Positions 2,325-8,017 of a DNA stretch of 12,295 bases are shown piece after piece (position 1 is the stretch's first letter; each line of letters opens with the position of its first letter). The stretch lies in IMG/VR virus record IMGVR_UViG_2529292735_000007. The stretch is one strand, 5' to 3'. The notes beneath the pieces were generated by a model. The model was not told the DNA's origin, searched no databases, and worked only from the letters and a program-made list of their open reading frames with translations. The position numbers were made by a program, and so were the translations under genes. This DNA comes from a virus. Taxonomy: Duplodnaviria > Heunggongvirae > Uroviricota > Caudoviricetes.

Positions 2325-2396
2325 TTCCTGTTCCGGGCCTTTCCTGCACCTTGCGGCGGGAGGCCTTCGCACATCTGTAACCAGAGGATTGCCGCA

Positions 2397-2762
2397 ATGA
2401 TTCTCGCCAACGACTTTCTTGAATACCTGCTCAACACAGAGCGTGATCTTGCCGTTCGCGTGCGTGACCGTTATGACATGTACCTGAAATCCCTGCCTGT
2501 ACCGCAGCTCGCTGACGGAAAGATTGTTATTGATGGCCGCTACATGATTGACAGCCACGAGGGAAATTACAGGCTTTACCGCATTGAAGGTGGCACCCCG
2601 TCCGTTATTGGCATTTACCAGCGCCCATCCTCTGCAATCGTCGATGTGATTGCCGACAGCATCCGCATCACACATCGCCATGCCGACACAGAAGACACCG
2701 TGCTGGAAATTCAGCGGCTGGCTGCCGTCTGCCGCGACACCCTGAATGGCATGACGAAGTAA
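2397..2762 (+). CDS. hypothetical protein (121 aa) immediately upstream of the replication initiator
   Basis: ATG at 2397 with AGAGGA upstream; ends 6 nt before the start of the rep gene, consistent with co-transcription; no motif recognised. Confidence 0.5.
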   Translation: MILANDFLEYLLNTERDLAVRVRDRYDMYLKSLPVPQLADGKIVIDGRYMIDSHEGNYRLYRIEGGTPSVIGIYQRPSSAIVDVIADSIRITHRHADTEDTVLEIQRLAAVCRDTLNGMTK

Positions 2763-2768
2763 ATCACT

Positions 2769-5591
2769 ATGACGGCAGAGTACATCAGGGACTGGCAACA
2801 ACCGCGCCACGCGGTGGGGCGTGAAGGAACGGGGATCCCCGCTCCTGAATCCGCGCTTTCCTCCTGGCTGGGTGCCTACCGGGTAGAGAACGAGCGCCGC
2901 CAGGAAATGGCTGATGCGGCGTTCTCCGCCACGCCGCTGGGCAACCTGATTAATAAAAGCCTGGACGCACAGAAAAAACAGGACAAAACCATCACACTGG
3001 CAGGAGACGCCAGAAAACAGGCACGCGGCGCGGTGGATGAAGCCATGGCCTCGCTGCGCCTGCTGCCGTCCTATCTGCGCGATCCGCTTATTCGCCACCT
3101 CTCCTTCCTGCGCAAAAAACAGGAAGCCGATCGCCGGAAAGGCAAAAAGAGCTGGCAGGCGGAACGCTATGCACGCGGAACCCTGCGCAAAATATTCGAA
3201 CGTCTGGACCGCACTGATCACCGCTGGCTGACACCGGATTATCGCTCCCTTGCTGGACGCGAACGCCTGGACGATTTGCTTTACCTGCCGCAGCTCAACA
3301 AACACCAGATACAGACGCTGGCCACCATGACGGCGGCGATGTTCAGCAGCACCTTCGAAAAACTCTGCGATGGCTTTGGCGCGACTGATGGCGAACTGAC
3401 CATGGATGTAACGCTGAAGGCGTATCAGATGCTGGCCCGCATGGCGTTACACCTGCACGCCATGCCTCCACATTATGACGCACTGACAACAGACAAAGAC
3501 CGGAGGAACGAACCGGACACAGAGCTGCTGCCGGGCGCAATCCTTCGCCTGACCTGTGCGGAATGGTGGAAACGCAAACTATGGCTGTTACGTTGCGAGT
3601 GGAGAGAAGAACAACTCCGCGCCGCCTGTCTGGTTTCCAGAAAAACATCGCCCTATCTGAGCCAGGACGCGTTAAGCGAGTTTCGCGCACAGCGCGAGAA
3701 AACACGCGATTTCCTGAAAAGTTTCATGCTGGAAAACGAAGACGGGTTCACGATTGATCTCGAGACAGTGTATTACGCGGGAGTAAGTAACCCGGTTCAC
3801 CGTAAGGCAGAAATGATGGCCACCATGAAGGGACTGGAACTTCTGGCCGAAGCCCGTGGCGACAGAGCGGTGTTTCTGACTGTCACCTGCCCGTCAAAAT
3901 ACCACGCAACAACGGAGAACGGTCATCCGAACCCCAAATGGAACGGGGCCACCATGCGCGACTCCAGCGATTACCTGGTTAACACGTTTTTTGCGGCGGT
4001 CCGCAAAAAACTGAACCGCGACGGCCTGCGCTGGTATGGCATCCGCACGGTGGAGCCTCACCATGACGGCACCGTGCACTGGCATATGATGGTCTTTGCT
4101 CATCCGGAAGAAATCGACACCATTGTGTCCCACGTCCGCGATATTGCCATTCAGGAAGACCGCCACGAGCTGGGCAATGATATTACTCCACGCTTTAAAG
4201 TGGAGTATGTCGACGGCTCAAAAGGCACACCAACCAGCTATATCGCGACCTACATCGGGAAAAACCTGGACAGCCGCGCCGTGGATGGCATCGACCCGAA
4301 AACGGGCAAACCACGCGTTGACCACGAAACCGGAAAATCAATGGCCGAGAGCGTGGAGCGCGCCATCGGTTGGGCACGCCTTCACCGGGTCCGCCAGTTC
4401 CAGTTCTTTGGCATCCCCTCCCGTCAGGTGTGGCGTGAACTCCGCCGCCTTGCCAGCCAGATGGCACGCAACCCGGAAGGCCCGCAACGGCTGAAGGATG
4501 ACGCAATGGATGCGGTACTCGCTGCCGCTGATGCCGGATGTTTTGCCACCTACATAGAGAAACAGGGCGGCGTACTTGTTCCACGCAAAGACTACCTGAT
4601 TCGCACCGCCTACGACCTCGCCGATGAGCTGAACGATTACGGCGAACAGAGTGTACAGATTTACGGGATCTGGTCACCACTCATCGGGGAATCCTCCCGT
4701 GTGTGCACGCACCCGGATAACTGGAAGCTGGTAAGACGTAAACCGGAACAGGAAGGCAGCGCCCACGAAAATGGTTTTGACCTTCAGGGCGGCCCTGCCG
4801 CCCCTTGGACTCGTGGCAATAACTGTCCCAGTGTACAGGAAACAGACAACAACGGGACAGAACAGCCGGAAGAACGGCCAGCACCGTGGCCGCAGCTTCC
4901 TGACGGCATTGAAGTGAATGAATGGATGCACTCACTGAAACGGCACGAACGCCGGGCGCTGATGCGTTCGCTGCGTGACAAACAGGCCAAAAACAGCAGC
5001 GATGAAATGCAGAACTGGACGCAGAGCCGCAAACAGCCGCGGCCTTTGCCTGATAACCACGAGTTACTCGCTAAAGAATGGCGGGAGTCTGCTGAATCTC
5101 TCGGCCTGCATATTGGTGAACAGCAGATGCAGCACCTGTTACGGGGCGGCAGTCTGTACGTTGACGGCAGCATCATTGCACCGCAGGGATTTGAAATTGT
5201 ACGCAAACCGGATACCCGCCCGGACAGCCGAATCACGCAGCTCTGGCAGCGCCTGAGCCGTAATCACGGCGTAAGCAGCACGGAGATCCGCCATAACCCG
5301 GTCGCCAGCTATCTGGAACAGCTGGGGGCATCAGACCCTGAAGCCGCCGCACGCCTGGCATCCACACTTCAGCAGGACCAGAACACCATGAAAACACCCG
5401 TTACCGTGCTTTCTGACATGCTGCGCGCCATCCGCGACGCAGAGCACGCACAGAGAATCAGTGAAACCACTGAACGCGCCCGCCGCAAAGCAGACCTGCT
5501 GCGGGGTGGCCTGACCAGTGGAAACAAAAAACAGACAGAAACGGGATTCACAAATCCCGTAAATGAGCAAAAAACGCGCCGCGATATATGA
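2769..5591 (+). CDS. A: rolling-circle replication initiator (HUH-type endonuclease, P2 gpA / phiX174 gpA superfamily I), 940 aa
   Basis: Translation contains EPHHDGTVHWHMMVFAHPEE (HWH at nt 4077..4085) and the paired active-site tyrosines in SYIATYIGKN (Tyr codons 4239..4241 and 4251..4253, Y-x3-Y spacing as in phiX174 gpA YVAKYV); position upstream of the Q-P-O head genes matches P2-like prophage order. Confidence 0.85.
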   Translation: MTAEYIRDWQQPRHAVGREGTGIPAPESALSSWLGAYRVENERRQEMADAAFSATPLGNLINKSLDAQKKQDKTITLAGDARKQARGAVDEAMASLRLLPSYLRDPLIRHLSFLRKKQEADRRKGKKSWQAERYARGTLRKIFERLDRTDHRWLTPDYRSLAGRERLDDLLYLPQLNKHQIQTLATMTAAMFSSTFEKLCDGFGATDGELTMDVTLKAYQMLARMALHLHAMPPHYDALTTDKDRRNEPDTELLPGAILRLTCAEWWKRKLWLLRCEWREEQLRAACLVSRKTSPYLSQDALSEFRAQREKTRDFLKSFMLENEDGFTIDLETVYYAGVSNPVHRKAEMMATMKGLELLAEARGDRAVFLTVTCPSKYHATTENGHPNPKWNGATMRDSSDYLVNTFFAAVRKKLNRDGLRWYGIRTVEPHHDGTVHWHMMVFAHPEEIDTIVSHVRDIAIQEDRHELGNDITPRFKVEYVDGSKGTPTSYIATYIGKNLDSRAVDGIDPKTGKPRVDHETGKSMAESVERAIGWARLHRVRQFQFFGIPSRQVWRELRRLASQMARNPEGPQRLKDDAMDAVLAAADAGCFATYIEKQGGVLVPRKDYLIRTAYDLADELNDYGEQSVQIYGIWSPLIGESSRVCTHPDNWKLVRRKPEQEGSAHENGFDLQGGPAAPWTRGNNCPSVQETDNNGTEQPEERPAPWPQLPDGIEVNEWMHSLKRHERRALMRSLRDKQAKNSSDEMQNWTQSRKQPRPLPDNHELLAKEWRESAESLGLHIGEQQMQHLLRGGSLYVDGSIIAPQGFEIVRKPDTRPDSRITQLWQRLSRNHGVSSTEIRHNPVASYLEQLGASDPEAAARLASTLQQDQNTMKTPVTVLSDMLRAIRDAEHAQRISETTERARRKADLLRGGLTSGNKKQTETGFTNPVNEQKTRRDI

Positions 5592-5636
5592 AGCGCGCAC
5601 AAAACAGGCAAAAACGGGATTTCAGAATCCCGTAAA
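5538..5636. promoter_or_regulatory. parC-like operator/centromere: two copies of a 20-bp palindrome upstream of parM
   Basis: AAACGGGATTcacaAATCCCGTAAA (palindrome 5541..5560) and AAACGGGATTtcagAATCCCGTAAA (palindrome 5614..5633), 73 bp apart centre to centre, flanked by CAAAAAAC-type A-tracts; the first copy lies inside the 3' end of the rep CDS. Confidence 0.45.
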
Positions 5637-5667
5637 CGATTAATTAATCAACATAAGGAAAAGCGAC

Positions 5668-6627
5668 ATGAAAATTTGTATCGACGACGGCTCCACCAAC
5701 ATCAAGCTGGCATGGACTGAGAACGGCGAACGCCGCAACGCCATCAGCCCGAACAGCTTCAAGTCGGAATGGTCTGCGCCGTTCGGTGGCACGCAGCCCG
5801 CGAACTACATGCTTGATGGCGTGCGCTATGGTTTTGATCCGGTCAGCGATCGCTTTGTCCAGACGACCGACACGCAATACCAGTACAGTGATGTGAATGT
5901 CATTGCCATTCATCACGCACTGGTCAAATCAGGCATCACGCCACAGGAGGTGGATGTGGTTGTCACCCTGCCACTGAGCGAGTATTTCGACACAAACGCA
6001 CAGCCGGACATGGCCAACATCAACCGCAAAAAAGCGAACGTTATGCGCCCGGTGGAGTACCAGAACGGCGAAGCATTCACTATCCGTAACGTGCGGGTTA
6101 TGCCTGAATCCATTCCGGCTGGCTTTAAAGCACTGGCTGACATGAGTCCGTTTGAATCCCTGCTGATTGTGGATTTAGGCGGAACCACGCTGGATGTGGC
6201 AAAGGTTCAGGGACAACTGGCAGGTATCAGCCAGGTGTTTTGCGATCCACACGTAGGCGTTTCCCTGATGGCCGATGCCGTACTGTCGGTGATGGCCACT
6301 AACGGTATGCGTACCAGTCACCACATCGCCAATACCATTATCGAACATCGCCATGATGAAGCCTGGTTGCGCCAACACATCCACAATGACGCGCATTACG
6401 CCAGCCTGATGGCGGTTATTCGTGAAAAGGAAGAAACACTGAAACAACGCGTGATCCGCGCGCTGGCGGGTTTTTCGGGTTACGGACGGGTGATGGTTGT
6501 CGGTGGTGGGGCGGAGATTGTGGCACCCGCTATCCGCGAAGCCTGCGGAGTTAATGCGACTTTCATCGCGGACGGGGTGCCACAGTTTGCTCTGGTTAAT
6601 GGGCTGTACGCAATGGACAAGGAGTAA
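5668..6627 (+). CDS. parM: ParM/StbA-family actin-like segregation ATPase (type II partition), 319 aa
   Basis: AAGGAAAA Shine-Dalgarno then ATG; translation matches plasmid R1 ParM as recalled from memory along its length (ICIDDGSTNIKLAW, ISPNSFK, QYSDVNVIAIHHAL, VMPESIPAGF, LLIVDLGGTTLDV, GVSL, VVGGGAE, LVNGLYA). Confidence 0.9.
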   Translation: MKICIDDGSTNIKLAWTENGERRNAISPNSFKSEWSAPFGGTQPANYMLDGVRYGFDPVSDRFVQTTDTQYQYSDVNVIAIHHALVKSGITPQEVDVVVTLPLSEYFDTNAQPDMANINRKKANVMRPVEYQNGEAFTIRNVRVMPESIPAGFKALADMSPFESLLIVDLGGTTLDVAKVQGQLAGISQVFCDPHVGVSLMADAVLSVMATNGMRTSHHIANTIIEHRHDEAWLRQHIHNDAHYASLMAVIREKEETLKQRVIRALAGFSGYGRVMVVGGGAEIVAPAIREACGVNATFIADGVPQFALVNGLYAMDKE

Positions 6628-6631
6628 ACCA

Positions 6632-6946
6632 ATGACGACACCAACCAGACGGATAAGTTTCTATCTGAAGCCCGCCGCCGTCAATAGTGAACGGAAGGCG
6701 TGTAATTACCTCGACAGCCTGCCAGCCTCTGAACGCAGCCGCGCGCAACGCGCGGCCTTTCTGGCCGGGCTGGCACTCATAAAACGCGATCCTGCATTTG
6801 CCTATTGGTTGGCCGAATGGCCGGAAGAAGGAGCTGCGCCAGCAAAGAATAATATTCAGAGTAAATATGCCAGCACACCTGCCACCGGAAGCAATCACAG
6901 CACTAGCGAGATAAGAAAGAACATTCAGTCATTTTTCCCGGAGTGA
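6632..6946 (+). CDS. parR: ParR-like ribbon-helix-helix centromere-binding protein / partition adaptor, about 105 aa
   Basis: ATG at 6632, 4 nt after the parM stop; N-terminus RRISFYLKPAAVNSERKACNYLDSLPASERSRAQRAAFLAGLALIKRDP resembles R1 ParR (RTIAFKLNPDVNQ...LDSIPQGERSRLNRAALTAGLALYRQDP, from memory); the track ORF 6497..6946 is the same frame extended upstream. Confidence 0.75.
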   Translation: MTTPTRRISFYLKPAAVNSERKACNYLDSLPASERSRAQRAAFLAGLALIKRDPAFAYWLAEWPEEGAAPAKNNIQSKYASTPATGSNHSTSEIRKNIQSFFPE

Positions 6947-6965
6947 AAACAGGAGAGGTGCATCT

Positions 6966-7397
6966 ATGGCAACTATTCCCAAAAAATGGTTACAACGCAA
7001 AATCGCAGACCTTGAATCGTGTCGTGAAGACATCCCATTTGGCCTTGATGAAAACGATCACAATATGTTAATCGCACTGAAAATCGCACTCACATCGCTG
7101 GAAGCGAAACCTGTTGCATGGACTGATGATGAGGAACTGCGTGATGTCAAGCAGTATGGTTTCGGTGAGATATTTCAGTGTCCGCCAGATAAATACGCGG
7201 ACCCGCGCCGTGTTATCCCTATGTATCAAGAGCCGCCAGCGCCAGCAGTACCAGATGGGCTGGTTAGAGCGGTGCGTTTCTATGAACAGGTTAAGCGTGA
7301 AAATCCGCCAGCCGAAACCGGAGCATGGAAAGACGCTGTTGACTGGGTGCTCAAAGAGGCTTGCCAAGCTGTAAACATTGGCATCAAAGGAGAGTGA
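6966..7397 (+). CDS. hypothetical protein (143 aa), accessory-locus cargo gene 1
   Basis: ATG at 6966 with AGGAGAGG Shine-Dalgarno 7 nt upstream; contains the motif IALTSLEAKPVAW shared with the gene at 7690; proline-rich middle (YQEPPAPAVPDG). Confidence 0.6.
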   Translation: MATIPKKWLQRKIADLESCREDIPFGLDENDHNMLIALKIALTSLEAKPVAWTDDEELRDVKQYGFGEIFQCPPDKYADPRRVIPMYQEPPAPAVPDGLVRAVRFYEQVKRENPPAETGAWKDAVDWVLKEACQAVNIGIKGE

Positions 7398-7398
7398 T

Positions 7399-7686
7399 AT
7401 GGCAACTTTGCAGGAATTAATCGACCTGACGCCAGAACAGGAAAAAGCGTGGAATCGCCTTGTGAAGGCTGTAAAGGATTTCAGGGCAGCCGGAGGAAAG
7501 TTTTATAGCGTCCTGGACACGCTGAGCGCATACAACGGCGAGCACGTAGCCAGCATTGATAACGATAAGGGCTACCACACTGCAAGCGTTTATATGCCTA
7601 GCATTGATGCGCCAGGGCTAACCAGTTGGGCTGATGATTGGCACGGCATCACGCTGAAAGATGGCGTTGAAGTGGATGAGGACTAA
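7399..7686 (+). CDS. hypothetical protein (95 aa), accessory-locus cargo gene 2
   Basis: ATG at 7399 (1 nt after the previous stop) with AAAGGAGAG Shine-Dalgarno; acidic C-terminus; the track ORF 7378..7686 is the same frame with an alternative upstream start. Confidence 0.55.
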   Translation: MATLQELIDLTPEQEKAWNRLVKAVKDFRAAGGKFYSVLDTLSAYNGEHVASIDNDKGYHTASVYMPSIDAPGLTSWADDWHGITLKDGVEVDED

Positions 7687-7689
7687 CAC

Positions 7690-7950
7690 ATGACAACTTT
7701 CACCGACAAAGAACTGATTAAAGAAATCAAAGAGCGCATAGGTAGCCTGGACGTGAGAGACAATATTGAACGCCGTGCTTATGAAATTGCTCTGGTATCG
7801 CTGGAAGCAGAGCCAGTAGCATGGATGCATGTAAATAACGGCATCGGAATACCAGCAATAACAATGAGTAAAGAGGTTGCAGAGAGTTGGTTATCAAAAG
7901 GCTGGTATGTCCAACCCTTACATCTAGCCCAGCCTGCATCAAAGCTATAG
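7690..7950 (+). CDS. hypothetical protein (86 aa), accessory-locus cargo gene 3, paralogous motif to gene 1
   Basis: ATG at 7690 with GAGGA 7 nt upstream; contains IALVSLEAEPVAW (compare IALTSLEAKPVAW in 6966..7397); followed by a terminator hairpin. Confidence 0.55.
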   Translation: MTTFTDKELIKEIKERIGSLDVRDNIERRAYEIALVSLEAEPVAWMHVNNGIGIPAITMSKEVAESWLSKGWYVQPLHLAQPASKL

Positions 7951-7960
7951 AAATGAGCCA

Positions 7961-7983
7961 AAACGCCCTCTTCCAGGGCGTTT
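7961..7983 (+). terminator. rho-independent terminator closing the accessory operon
   Basis: AAACGCCCT-cttcc-AGGGCGTTT hairpin followed by ATTTCAA; begins 11 nt after the stop at 7950. Confidence 0.5.
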
Positions 7984-7990
7984 ATTTCAA

Positions 7991-8017
7991 TGCACAATAG
8001 TGCACAAATTTGCACAA
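7991..8017. repeat. three direct repeats of TGCACAA at exact 10-bp phasing
   Basis: TGCACAA at 7991, 8001 and 8011 (tgcacaaTAGtgcacaaATTtgcacaa), one helical turn apart, followed by a T7 run; looks like a phased protein-binding array. Confidence 0.6.

Follow-up and report, generated by a model that had tools for sequence, protein, structure and literature searches.

Gene A of a P88-type P2-like prophage is very probably an ordinary long-form replication initiator with exchangeable ends

The 940-codon open reading frame studied here, which lies in a 12,295-nucleotide stretch of viral DNA (the window), is very probably the ordinary long-form gene A initiator of a P88-type (Xuanwuvirus) P2-like Escherichia coli prophage, with its extra length derived from swappable ends and its tail incidental. 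The original prediction had described the protein as about 180 residues longer than P2 gpA, and the comparison bore this out: the gene A product has 940 aa, 179 more than P2 gpA (761 aa, NC_070904), and 186 A has 694 aa. The long form of GpA is already known, being annotated in thousands of genomes, and is not a new invention. The coordinates of all features are collected in Table 1.

Table 1. Features of gene A and its surroundings (positions in the window; aa, residues of the gene A product)
Feature	Position	Strand	Basis
Gene A, P2-family rolling-circle replication initiator (replication endonuclease)	2769..5591	+	single open frame, 940 codons + stop
Variable N-terminal insert, about aa 17-98, swapped block in relatives	2817..3062	+	alignment, DNA breakpoint near 3072
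Phage_GPA catalytic core (Pfam), aa 179-503	3303..4277	+	PF05840 match
HUH metal-binding motif H437-W-H439	4077..4085	+	H437 and H439 invariant in alignment with P2 and 186
Catalytic tyrosine pair Y491-I-A-T-Y495	4239..4253	+	Y491 and Y495 invariant in alignment with P2 and 186
Predicted origin of replication within the ORF, encoding aa 673-690	4777..4826	+	homology to rep_origin inside 186 gene A
TTGACnTT box of the origin	4777-4784	+	conserved origin motif
Origin GC hairpin GGGCGGC-CCT-GCCGCCC	4787-4803	+	predicted by folding
Nick-region motif CTTGGACTCGTGGCAATAACTGT	4804-4826	+	homologous to 186 rep_origin
Acidic, proline-rich disordered linker QETDNNGTEQPEERPAPWPQLPDG, aa 691-715 (quoted peptide aa 690-713)	4839..4913	+	composition, low pLDDT
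Basic helix LKRHERRALMRSLRDK, aa 716-740, family-wide including 186	4914..4988	+	AlphaFold model, hhalign, alignments
Conserved C-terminal domain, ~115 aa, about aa 764-880	5058..5408	+	AF2 model, homologs
Long single helix, aa 857-913	5337..5507	+	AlphaFold model
Cargo-encoded ORF end, about aa 909-940 + stop	5492..5591	+	L012 homology ends at 5491
gpA-gpQ variable cargo island, left edge in gene A	5492-7990		homology with L012 lost at 5491, back at 7991
parC-like repeat 1 (42 nt), palindrome ACGGGATTCACAAATCCCGT at 5541-5560, in the last gene A codons	5525..5566	.	sequence repeat
parC-like repeat 2 (42 nt), palindrome ACGGGATTTCAGAATCCCGT at 5614-5633, intergenic, before the parM ribosome-binding site	5598..5639	.	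sequence repeat
parM, actin-like segregation ATPase, first cargo gene	5668..6627	+	PF06406 E 1.8e-82, PF21523 E 1.3e-68
parR/stbB-like adaptor gene	6632..6946	+	PF10784 E 2.6e-26

The assignment of gene A was based on profile and database comparisons. The Pfam family Phage_GPA (PF05840) matched the catalytic core with an E-value of 1.3e-130 and a score of 435.5 bits (cut-off 31.4), and PHROG 91, 'nicking at origin of replication', matched aa 3-940 (E 4e-276). The exact protein is present in E. coli DEC14C (EHX89561.1) and belongs to a 90% cluster of 16,881 sequences. At the nucleotide level, gene A was 99% identical to the 'replication endonuclease' gene of Citrobacter phage Shae_phiSM and 97% identical to that of phage P88. 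The endonucleases of P88 and Shae_phiSM (Xuanwuvirus, Peduoviridae) are likewise 940 aa long, share 96.9-98.7% protein identity with the gene A product over the full length and are encoded in the same setting, after a cox/C/int early region and ahead of parM-parR, with no substantive difference. On the Shae_phiSM map the 99%-identical gene stands between the cox/C/int early region and the cargo hotspot, which is followed by the portal; the portal/terminase genes downstream are annotated on the opposite strand. A 34.5-kb circular 'plasmid' copy of a P88-type phage also exists. Homologs of similar length are indeed common, as clusters of GpA-type proteins 940-946 aa long contain 16,881, 3,025 and 707 sequences. 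The core of gene A was found in 1,327 of the 5,426 complete E. coli genomes, and the C-terminal region together with the parC junction in 1,292 of them (about 24%). With the C-terminal domain also found on other GpA proteins, the extra region largely proved to be an ordinary part of the family.

The catalytic motifs lie where they had been predicted, near residues 437 to 495 of a GpA-family protein (H437-W-H439 and Y491/Y495, within PF05840). In phiX174 gpA and other HUH two-tyrosine initiators, both tyrosines lie on one helix face next to the HUH metal site, and these enzymes attach covalently to the 5' end and show a cis preference. phiX174 gpA is much smaller than the gene A product and, to our knowledge, has no comparable C-terminal module. 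From the P2/186/phiX174 paradigm and the conserved motifs in gene A we infer that the H437/H439 HUH site, together with Y491/Y495, would nick one strand at the origin; homology to the site annotated in 186 puts the predicted nick near nt 4808. GpA would then remain covalently bound to the 5' end and prime rolling-circle replication. By homology to P2 and 186, it may act preferentially in cis.

The additional residues were expected at the C-terminus, which was correct for about two thirds of them. The region downstream of the origin comprises 258 aa in the gene A product in comparison to 139 aa in P2 (~119 extra), while the part preceding the origin comprises 682 aa versus 622 aa in P2 and accounts for the remaining ~60 residues. 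The bulk of the latter corresponds to the N-terminal insert, which sits between the conserved WxWNxPRxA and LPxYLR motifs. The insert shared only 21-23% amino acid identity with the corresponding region of the relatives L006 and L008, though their cores were 92-94% identical; as judged from these alignments, it is hypervariable and exchanged by recombination. The post-origin part consists of the acidic linker, the basic helix, the ~115-aa domain, the long helix and ~32 residues supplied by the cargo.

The predicted origin of replication is embedded in the coding sequence. Its motif was identical in five diverged relatives (L003, L006, L008, L010 and L011) and is conserved in P2, 186 and SW5; the arms of the hairpin vary between phages and remain self-complementary. 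In comparison to the Hafnia homolog, dS was 0.065 in the origin codons versus 1.0-2.1 in the other segments of gene A. On these substitution rates, the synonymous sites over the origin are frozen and the sequence of the origin codons appears to be fixed at the DNA level. Another motif resembling the origin, at 7844, carried five mismatches and was taken as a chance occurrence.

The charged low-complexity segment described in the original prediction is present. Residues 691-715 have a net charge of -6, and 84% of them are polar or disorder-promoting; the AlphaFold pLDDT fell below 50 at aa 683-704 and 741-753 and averaged 61 over aa 703-712. The proposed interaction domain is not supported for this segment, as it starts at the embedded origin with its frozen synonymous sites and continues as a disordered linker. 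The basic helix segment that follows was aligned with the post-origin segment of 186 (hhalign E 6.5e-5). The idea of an added interaction domain survived only in part: there are an extra folded domain of ~115 aa and a long helix, neither of which has a clear counterpart in P2 or 186, but the idea is not supported for the low-complexity segment or the extreme tail.

The C-terminal domain was modelled as two helices, three strands and four helices with a pLDDT of about 80-90. In a search of 1.84 billion representatives it was confined to the C-terminal ends of GpA-family proteins (about 835-880 aa) or to fragments thereof, and it had no match in Pfam, NCBIfam, PDB or BFVD. Word-indexed protein searches with the C-terminal region yielded mostly fragments and contributed little more than this exhaustive search. 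The post-origin region alone yielded nothing in Pfam and NCBIfam but a sub-threshold Death-domain hit (E 0.059), and a sequence search of PDB chains with the whole gene A protein gave no meaningful match. The dN/dS of the domain against the Hafnia homolog was 0.26. Because it appears to be under purifying selection and occurs on GpA proteins only, the domain probably serves as an accessory module that binds DNA or a host factor. The long helix was predicted with a pLDDT of 72-88. Beyond about aa 881 it was restricted to the P88/Hafnia lineage, with only near-identical relatives recovered among the 1.84 billion representatives, and among phage records it was found in just 14, all P88-like (Xuanwuvirus and closely related Escherichia/Citrobacter phages). 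The dN/dS of this lineage-specific helix was 0.61, a value obtained from only 34 codons with lowered dS.

The end of gene A coincides with the edge of a variable cargo region. Homology was lost at 5491 with L012, at 5005 with L006 and at 6828 with L010, and was regained at approximately 7991 in all three. The homology with L008 broke at 4862, and L011, which has a 186/Fels-2-like early region, was 92% identical at the nucleotide level over 4509-6828 only. An exact coincidence of the breakpoints with the nick site was rejected, as they (4509, 4862, 5005 and 5491) are scattered across the last third of the gene. The cargo differs between relatives and includes parMR, a methylase with an AAA ATPase (L012) and Fic/antitoxin genes. 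P2-like phages are known to accommodate cargo at a hotspot between gpA and gpQ (Rousset et al. 2022; PMC9122126), and a putative partition system occupies this locus in about a quarter of them (PMC9122126). Because the left edge of the hotspot falls within the gpA frame, the last ~30 residues of GpA and the stop codon change with the cargo. The terminal ~32 residues and the stop codon would thus be contributed by whichever cargo fills the gpA-gpQ hotspot, in this case parC-parM-parR.

In the window, the ParM ATPase and ParR/StbB adaptor genes stand in tandem, an arrangement expected of a type II (ParMRC) cassette; in the Shae_phiSM annotation, parM is likewise followed by a partitioning/stability protein gene. 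The parC-like repeats are limited to two sites, 73 nt apart, each with a 20-nt palindrome, and on the minus strand they also resemble terminators. The palindrome core was retained in the Hafnia relative (75% identical overall). As had been noticed from the sequence, the tail of gene A does run into the parC-like palindrome, and its last codons overlap the first 42-nt repeat. Owing to a 1-nt indel, L011 and L010 read the DNA of the tail (the last ~20 residues) in another frame, with the palindrome DNA kept. The suggested interaction domain is not supported for the extreme tail either, since the parMR cargo cassette supplies its coding DNA and close relatives read this DNA in another frame. The overlap of the tail with the first parC-like palindrome is incidental because the hotspot boundary falls within the ORF; it is a by-product of that boundary and not a designed interaction domain. 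When positions 5150-6950 were compared with plasmid DNA, only the parM coding sequence was matched (67% identity, 5674-6282) and nothing upstream of it, so that no source of the tail was found in this comparison.

Comparison with other phages placed the variable parts in the context of the family, in which the post-origin region ranges from ~80 to 258 aa. P2 gpA belongs to the same Pfam family, has invariant HUH and Y-x3-Y motifs and was 31% identical over aa 77-744. The P2 origin likewise lies within the 3' third of gene A and shares the TTGAC box, the GC hairpin and the ...GGAnTnnTGnCAATAAC motif, and P2 gene A is also followed by the gpA-gpQ cargo hotspot. In contrast, P2 gpA lacks the ~59-aa N-terminal insert, the long helix and the tail, and has the shorter post-origin region given above. 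A truncated C-terminal domain in P2 is not claimed, as the hhalign result was marginal (E 0.029, probability 1.7%, 40 columns at the domain start). The 186 A protein showed 35% identity in the core and shares the post-origin basic helix, and the homologous motif within its gene carries the rep_origin annotation, but the protein ends about 80 aa past the origin, without the C-terminal domain. The same C-terminal domain follows the origin and linker in the replication endonuclease of the Salmonella phages SW5, SW3 and SI7 (Irrigatiovirus; 878 aa) and in GpA proteins from prophages (835-880 aa). Neither group has the lineage-specific long helix or the tail encoded by parC, and other cargo lies downstream.

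Several other explanations of the extra region were considered. The long helix and the parC-overlapping tail might form an added interaction domain that couples the initiator to ParM/ParR, e.g., by handing circles to ParR-parC. The homologs with helix plus tail (the window, Hafnia L010 and Fels-2-like L011, i.e. three lineages) all carry parM and parR directly downstream, while the 830-aa and 879-aa forms without helix plus tail are followed by other genes; moreover, the block from the origin to parR moves as a unit between unrelated P2-like backbones, and the long helix is predicted with good pLDDT values. However, this co-occurrence is explained by physical linkage in one recombination block. 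In L012 the helix is kept to about aa 908, yet the methylase/ATPase cargo takes the place of parMR; the tails of L011 and L010 are frame-shifted while the DNA palindrome is conserved; and the C-terminal domain is also present in phages without parMR (SW5 and L006). We thus regard this coupling as decidedly unlikely, with some functional link between the helix-plus-tail forms and parMR still conceivable. A related proposal, that the ~115-aa domain and the long helix together constitute an exchangeable GpA accessory module that recruits a host factor (e.g., Rep helicase) or ties replication to ParMRC, is in our judgement unlikely, and its ParMR-coupling version is disfavoured because of the frame-shifted tails and the variant without parMR.

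It is very unlikely that the post-origin module, or the ~100 pre-origin residues travelling with it, determines origin or host-factor specificity and is exchanged because protein and site must match. The breakpoints in four relatives between 4509 and 5491 show that exchange affects the final third of the gene but spares the core, and the purifying selection on the C-terminal domain would fit such a role. On the other hand, the nick motif is identical despite very different post-origin regions in L003, L006, L008, L010 and L011, hence no co-variation of site and protein is visible, and the C-terminal domain is entirely absent from 186 and from the Salmonella forms of 761-765 aa. That gpA was joined to a separate downstream gene when a stop codon was lost or the frame shifted, whether as an artefact or in evolution, is scarcely credible; the extra region would in that case be a second protein. 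The post-origin region is modular and set off from the core by a disordered linker, and short database entries with the C-terminal part only do exist, but these either carry a 'partial' label or come from the ends of contigs. The frame is uninterrupted in over 1,290 complete genomes as well as in 62%-identical relatives, P2 and 186 likewise run 80-139 aa beyond the embedded origin, and the 1.84 billion representatives contained no free-standing gene for the C-terminal domain, only full-length GpA or fragments. The reading of gene A as an ordinary long-form initiator with swappable ends is preferred over all of these.

As a discovery, gene A carries little weight, as it encodes an annotated and extremely common prophage replication endonuclease. 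The analysis nevertheless indicates that differences in GpA length arise mostly from the variable post-origin region and the variable N-terminal insert, and it allows the replication origin of P88-type prophages to be located inside gene A, at 4777-4826. If the proposal of an accessory module that recruits a host factor or ties replication to ParMRC were true, P88-type phages would be able to persist as plasmids. The position of the hotspot boundary inside the ORF matters for the delimitation of cargo by gene boundaries and for the interpretation of GpA C-termini.

Gene A (nt 2769..5591, plus strand) was one uninterrupted ORF of 940 codons, and its product, GpA, belonged to the P2-family replication initiators. 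The Phage_GPA family (PF05840) was matched at aa 179-503 (Pfam, E 1.3e-130), and PHROG 91 ('nicking at origin of replication') aligned over aa 3-940. The HUH motif (H437-W-H439) and the tyrosine pair (Y491-IAT-Y495) were identified; both histidines, Y491 and Y495 were invariant in the alignment including P2 gpA and 186 A. At the nucleotide level, gene A was 99.0% identical to the 'replication endonuclease' of Citrobacter phage Shae_phiSM and approximately 97% identical to its counterparts in Escherichia phage P88 and further Xuanwuvirus records. The identical protein EHX89561.1 (E. coli DEC14C) fell into a cluster of 16,881 sequences at 90% identity, and the sister clusters of 940-946 aa forms comprised 3,025 and 707 sequences. 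The gene A core (3100-4780, at least 80% coverage) and the C-terminal part plus parC junction (4866-5660) were found in 1,327 and 1,292, respectively, of 5,426 complete E. coli genomes, nearly all copies being chromosomal. The long GpA is therefore the usual form in a type of prophage present in about one quarter of E. coli genomes. The original prediction was right that there is real extra C-terminal material; the form itself, however, is an already known, annotated and very common protein, and its most conspicuous features, the low-complexity stretch and a tail that enters the palindrome, have ordinary explanations.

P2 gpA comprises 761 aa in NC_070904 (186 A, 694 aa), so the stated P2 length and the predicted excess of about 180 residues (exactly 179) were correct. 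The embedded origin motif (G683-N-N-C in the window, V623-N-N-C in P2) served as the anchor for dividing this excess. The pre-origin part consisted mainly of an insert of ~59 aa between the N-terminal WxWNxPRxA and LPxYLR motifs, along with a few short inserts. This N-terminal insert was hypervariable (21-23% identity to relatives with 92-94% identical cores), with a DNA homology breakpoint near nt 3072. The first 300 nt of gene A and the upstream ORF 2397-2762 (weak DUF5405-like match) made up a second swapped block (2391-3071), and the comparison loci L006, L008 and L013 regained >90% identity to the window only from nt 3072 on. The upstream early-region ORFs 1222-1773 and 1783-2400 both had family matches: one showed multiple weak HTH/winged-helix matches and carries the label 'DNA binding protein' in the Shae_phiSM annotation, and the other was an Ash-family protein (PF10554, E 7.5e-8). 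The post-origin length was ~80 aa in 186 and in Salmonella forms of 761-765 aa, 139 aa in P2, 142-204 aa in various prophages and SW5, and 240-258 aa in the window's lineage.

The 186 record annotates a rep_origin within gene A (codon 611). The homologous motif of the window recurred unchanged in SopEphi, the Hafnia relative and three further loci, although these sequences are otherwise 65-92% identical; the hairpin arms in P2, 186 and SW5 differed in sequence and kept their self-complementarity. Compared with the Hafnia homolog, dS was 0.065 over the origin codons versus 1.0-2.1 in other gene A segments, and the origin embedded in gene A is therefore constrained at the DNA level. By the P2/186/phiX174 paradigm, GpA would nick near nt 4808 through its HUH/tyrosine centre, become covalently attached and initiate rolling-circle replication in cis. 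A weak origin-like sequence at 7844-7862 (TCGGAATACCAGCAATAAC) differed from the 186 nick motif at 5 positions, had no adjacent hairpin and is probably due to chance.

Features of gene A, GpA and the homologous loci (nt positions refer to the window)
Feature	Position	Remarks
TTGACnTT box	4777-4784	homologous to 186 origin sequence
GC hairpin GGGCGGC-CCT-GCCGCCC	4787-4803	origin part
Origin motif CTTGGACTCGTGGCAATAACTGT	4804-4826	homologous to 186 origin sequence
Pre-origin residues		window 682 aa, P2 622 aa (+60)
Post-origin residues		window 258 aa, P2 139 aa (+119)
Acidic linker, disordered	aa 691-715	AlphaFold, alignments
Basic helix	aa 716-740	common to 186 (hhalign E 6.5e-5)
Polar spacer	aa 741-763	AlphaFold, alignments
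Compact domain, helix-helix-three-strand-helices	aa 764 to ~880	pLDDT ~80-90
Long helix	ends aa 913	AlphaFold
Disordered end	aa 917-940	AlphaFold
20-nt palindromes, one per 42-nt repeat	5541-5560, 5614-5633	directly upstream of parM (5668)
L011 homology	4509-6828 only	92% nt identity (L011:5750-8044)
L008 homology	stops at 4862	
L006 homology	stops at 5005	
L012 homology	stops at 5491, restarts at 7991	

The post-origin region was mapped from AlphaFold models and the protein alignments A1 and A2. The predicted charged low-complexity segment and its peptide (aa 690-713) were present, aa 691-715 having a net charge of -6 and 84% polar residues. Given the origin location and the modelled disorder, this segment begins at the origin and runs on into a largely disordered linker, which does not favour its reading as an interaction domain. 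When 1.84 billion representatives were searched exhaustively by HMMER using aa 700-940, only 26 proteins were returned; the informative matches were all GpA-family proteins or their fragments, in which the compact domain was C-terminal, and for the last ~60 residues all matches were near-identical. In a tblastn search of deposited phage genomes, the compact domain occurred only in 14 P88-like records (Xuanwuvirus and closely related Escherichia/Citrobacter phages) and four Irrigatiovirus-type Salmonella phage records (SW3, SW5, SI7), whereas the tail was confined to the 14 P88-like ones. One 373-aa protein from a Logan assembly (P0129) combined a terminase-like N-terminal portion (PF17289) with GpA aa 585 to ~840, most likely reflecting a misassembly or a rearranged defective prophage.

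The tail does reach the parC-like palindrome, as predicted: of two 42-nt direct repeats, the first is overlapped by the last codons of gene A. Its role as an interaction domain was not upheld: due to a 1-nt indel in the A-run ahead of palindrome 1, L011 (a prophage with a Fels-2/186-like early region) and the Hafnia relative L010 read the palindrome in another frame, ending in ...NKNRQKRDSQIP and ...NNKQKRDS, versus ...NKKQTETGFTNPVNEQKTRRDI in the window. The palindrome DNA was conserved throughout all three despite the frame difference, and the very end of the tail therefore reflects incidental reading of the ORF into parC-like DNA. Both palindromes were followed by T-rich runs on the minus strand and so scored as intrinsic-terminator-like (3 such sites found versus 0.9 expected). 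No convergent minus-strand gene was located near the palindromes, so that candidate ParR operators seem more likely than terminators. Neither a sigma-70-like promoter nor a plus-strand terminator was detected between the gene A end and parM (5474-5600), so that parM transcription may depend on read-through out of the early operon or on a non-consensus promoter located between the two palindromes.

Coupling of the extra C-terminal region to ParMR had some support, as homologs with the long helix and tail (L010, L011) carried parM and parR directly downstream and the 879-aa and 830-aa forms did not. However, three findings contradicted it: a parMR-less variant retained the long helix, the tails were frame-shifted, and the C-terminal domain also occurred in phages without parMR. 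A gene-fusion artefact was likewise contradicted, since the continuous frame was conserved and a free-standing version of the extra region was absent among the 1.84 billion representatives scanned. A specificity module matched to the origin was contradicted by identical nick motifs in lineages with different post-origin regions. We tentatively regard the conserved C-terminal domain as an accessory DNA-binding or host-factor-binding module, possibly not needed for catalysis, given that it is missing from 186 and the short Salmonella forms.

The E. coli 'plasmid' record L013 (NZ_CP148288.1; 34,461 bp, circular) corresponded to an entire P88-like phage genome, its genes including integrase, C/cox, gene A, parM/parR, terminase and capsid. 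It fits the published suggestion that parMR might allow plasmid persistence of such phages; counter to this reading, 1,532 of the 1,534 locations found in complete E. coli genomes were chromosomal.

The homology gap in L012 delimits a variable island at 5492-7990, with its left edge within gene A at ~codon 908. This island is the gpA-gpQ hotspot of Rousset et al. 2022 (PMC9122126), a site at which a putative partition system is reported for approximately one quarter of P2-like phages. It contained the parC-like repeats, parM, the parR/stbB-like gene and three small ORFs (6966-7397, 7378-7686, 7690-7950) without a family match. In relatives, the same slot held either a Dam-like methylase together with an AAA_15/21 ATPase or a Fic protein and an antitoxin; L012 carried a methyltransferase and an AAA ATPase in place of parMR. 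L011, whose early region is 186/Fels-2-like (CI repressor, CP76, Fil, DksA-like, Dam), shared with the window the last third of gene A and parC-parM-parR, the remainder of its gene A being only ~56-65% identical, a clear mosaic junction within the initiator gene. The gpA-gpQ cargo boundary thus lies inside the gene A ORF, and gene A is modular and mosaic.
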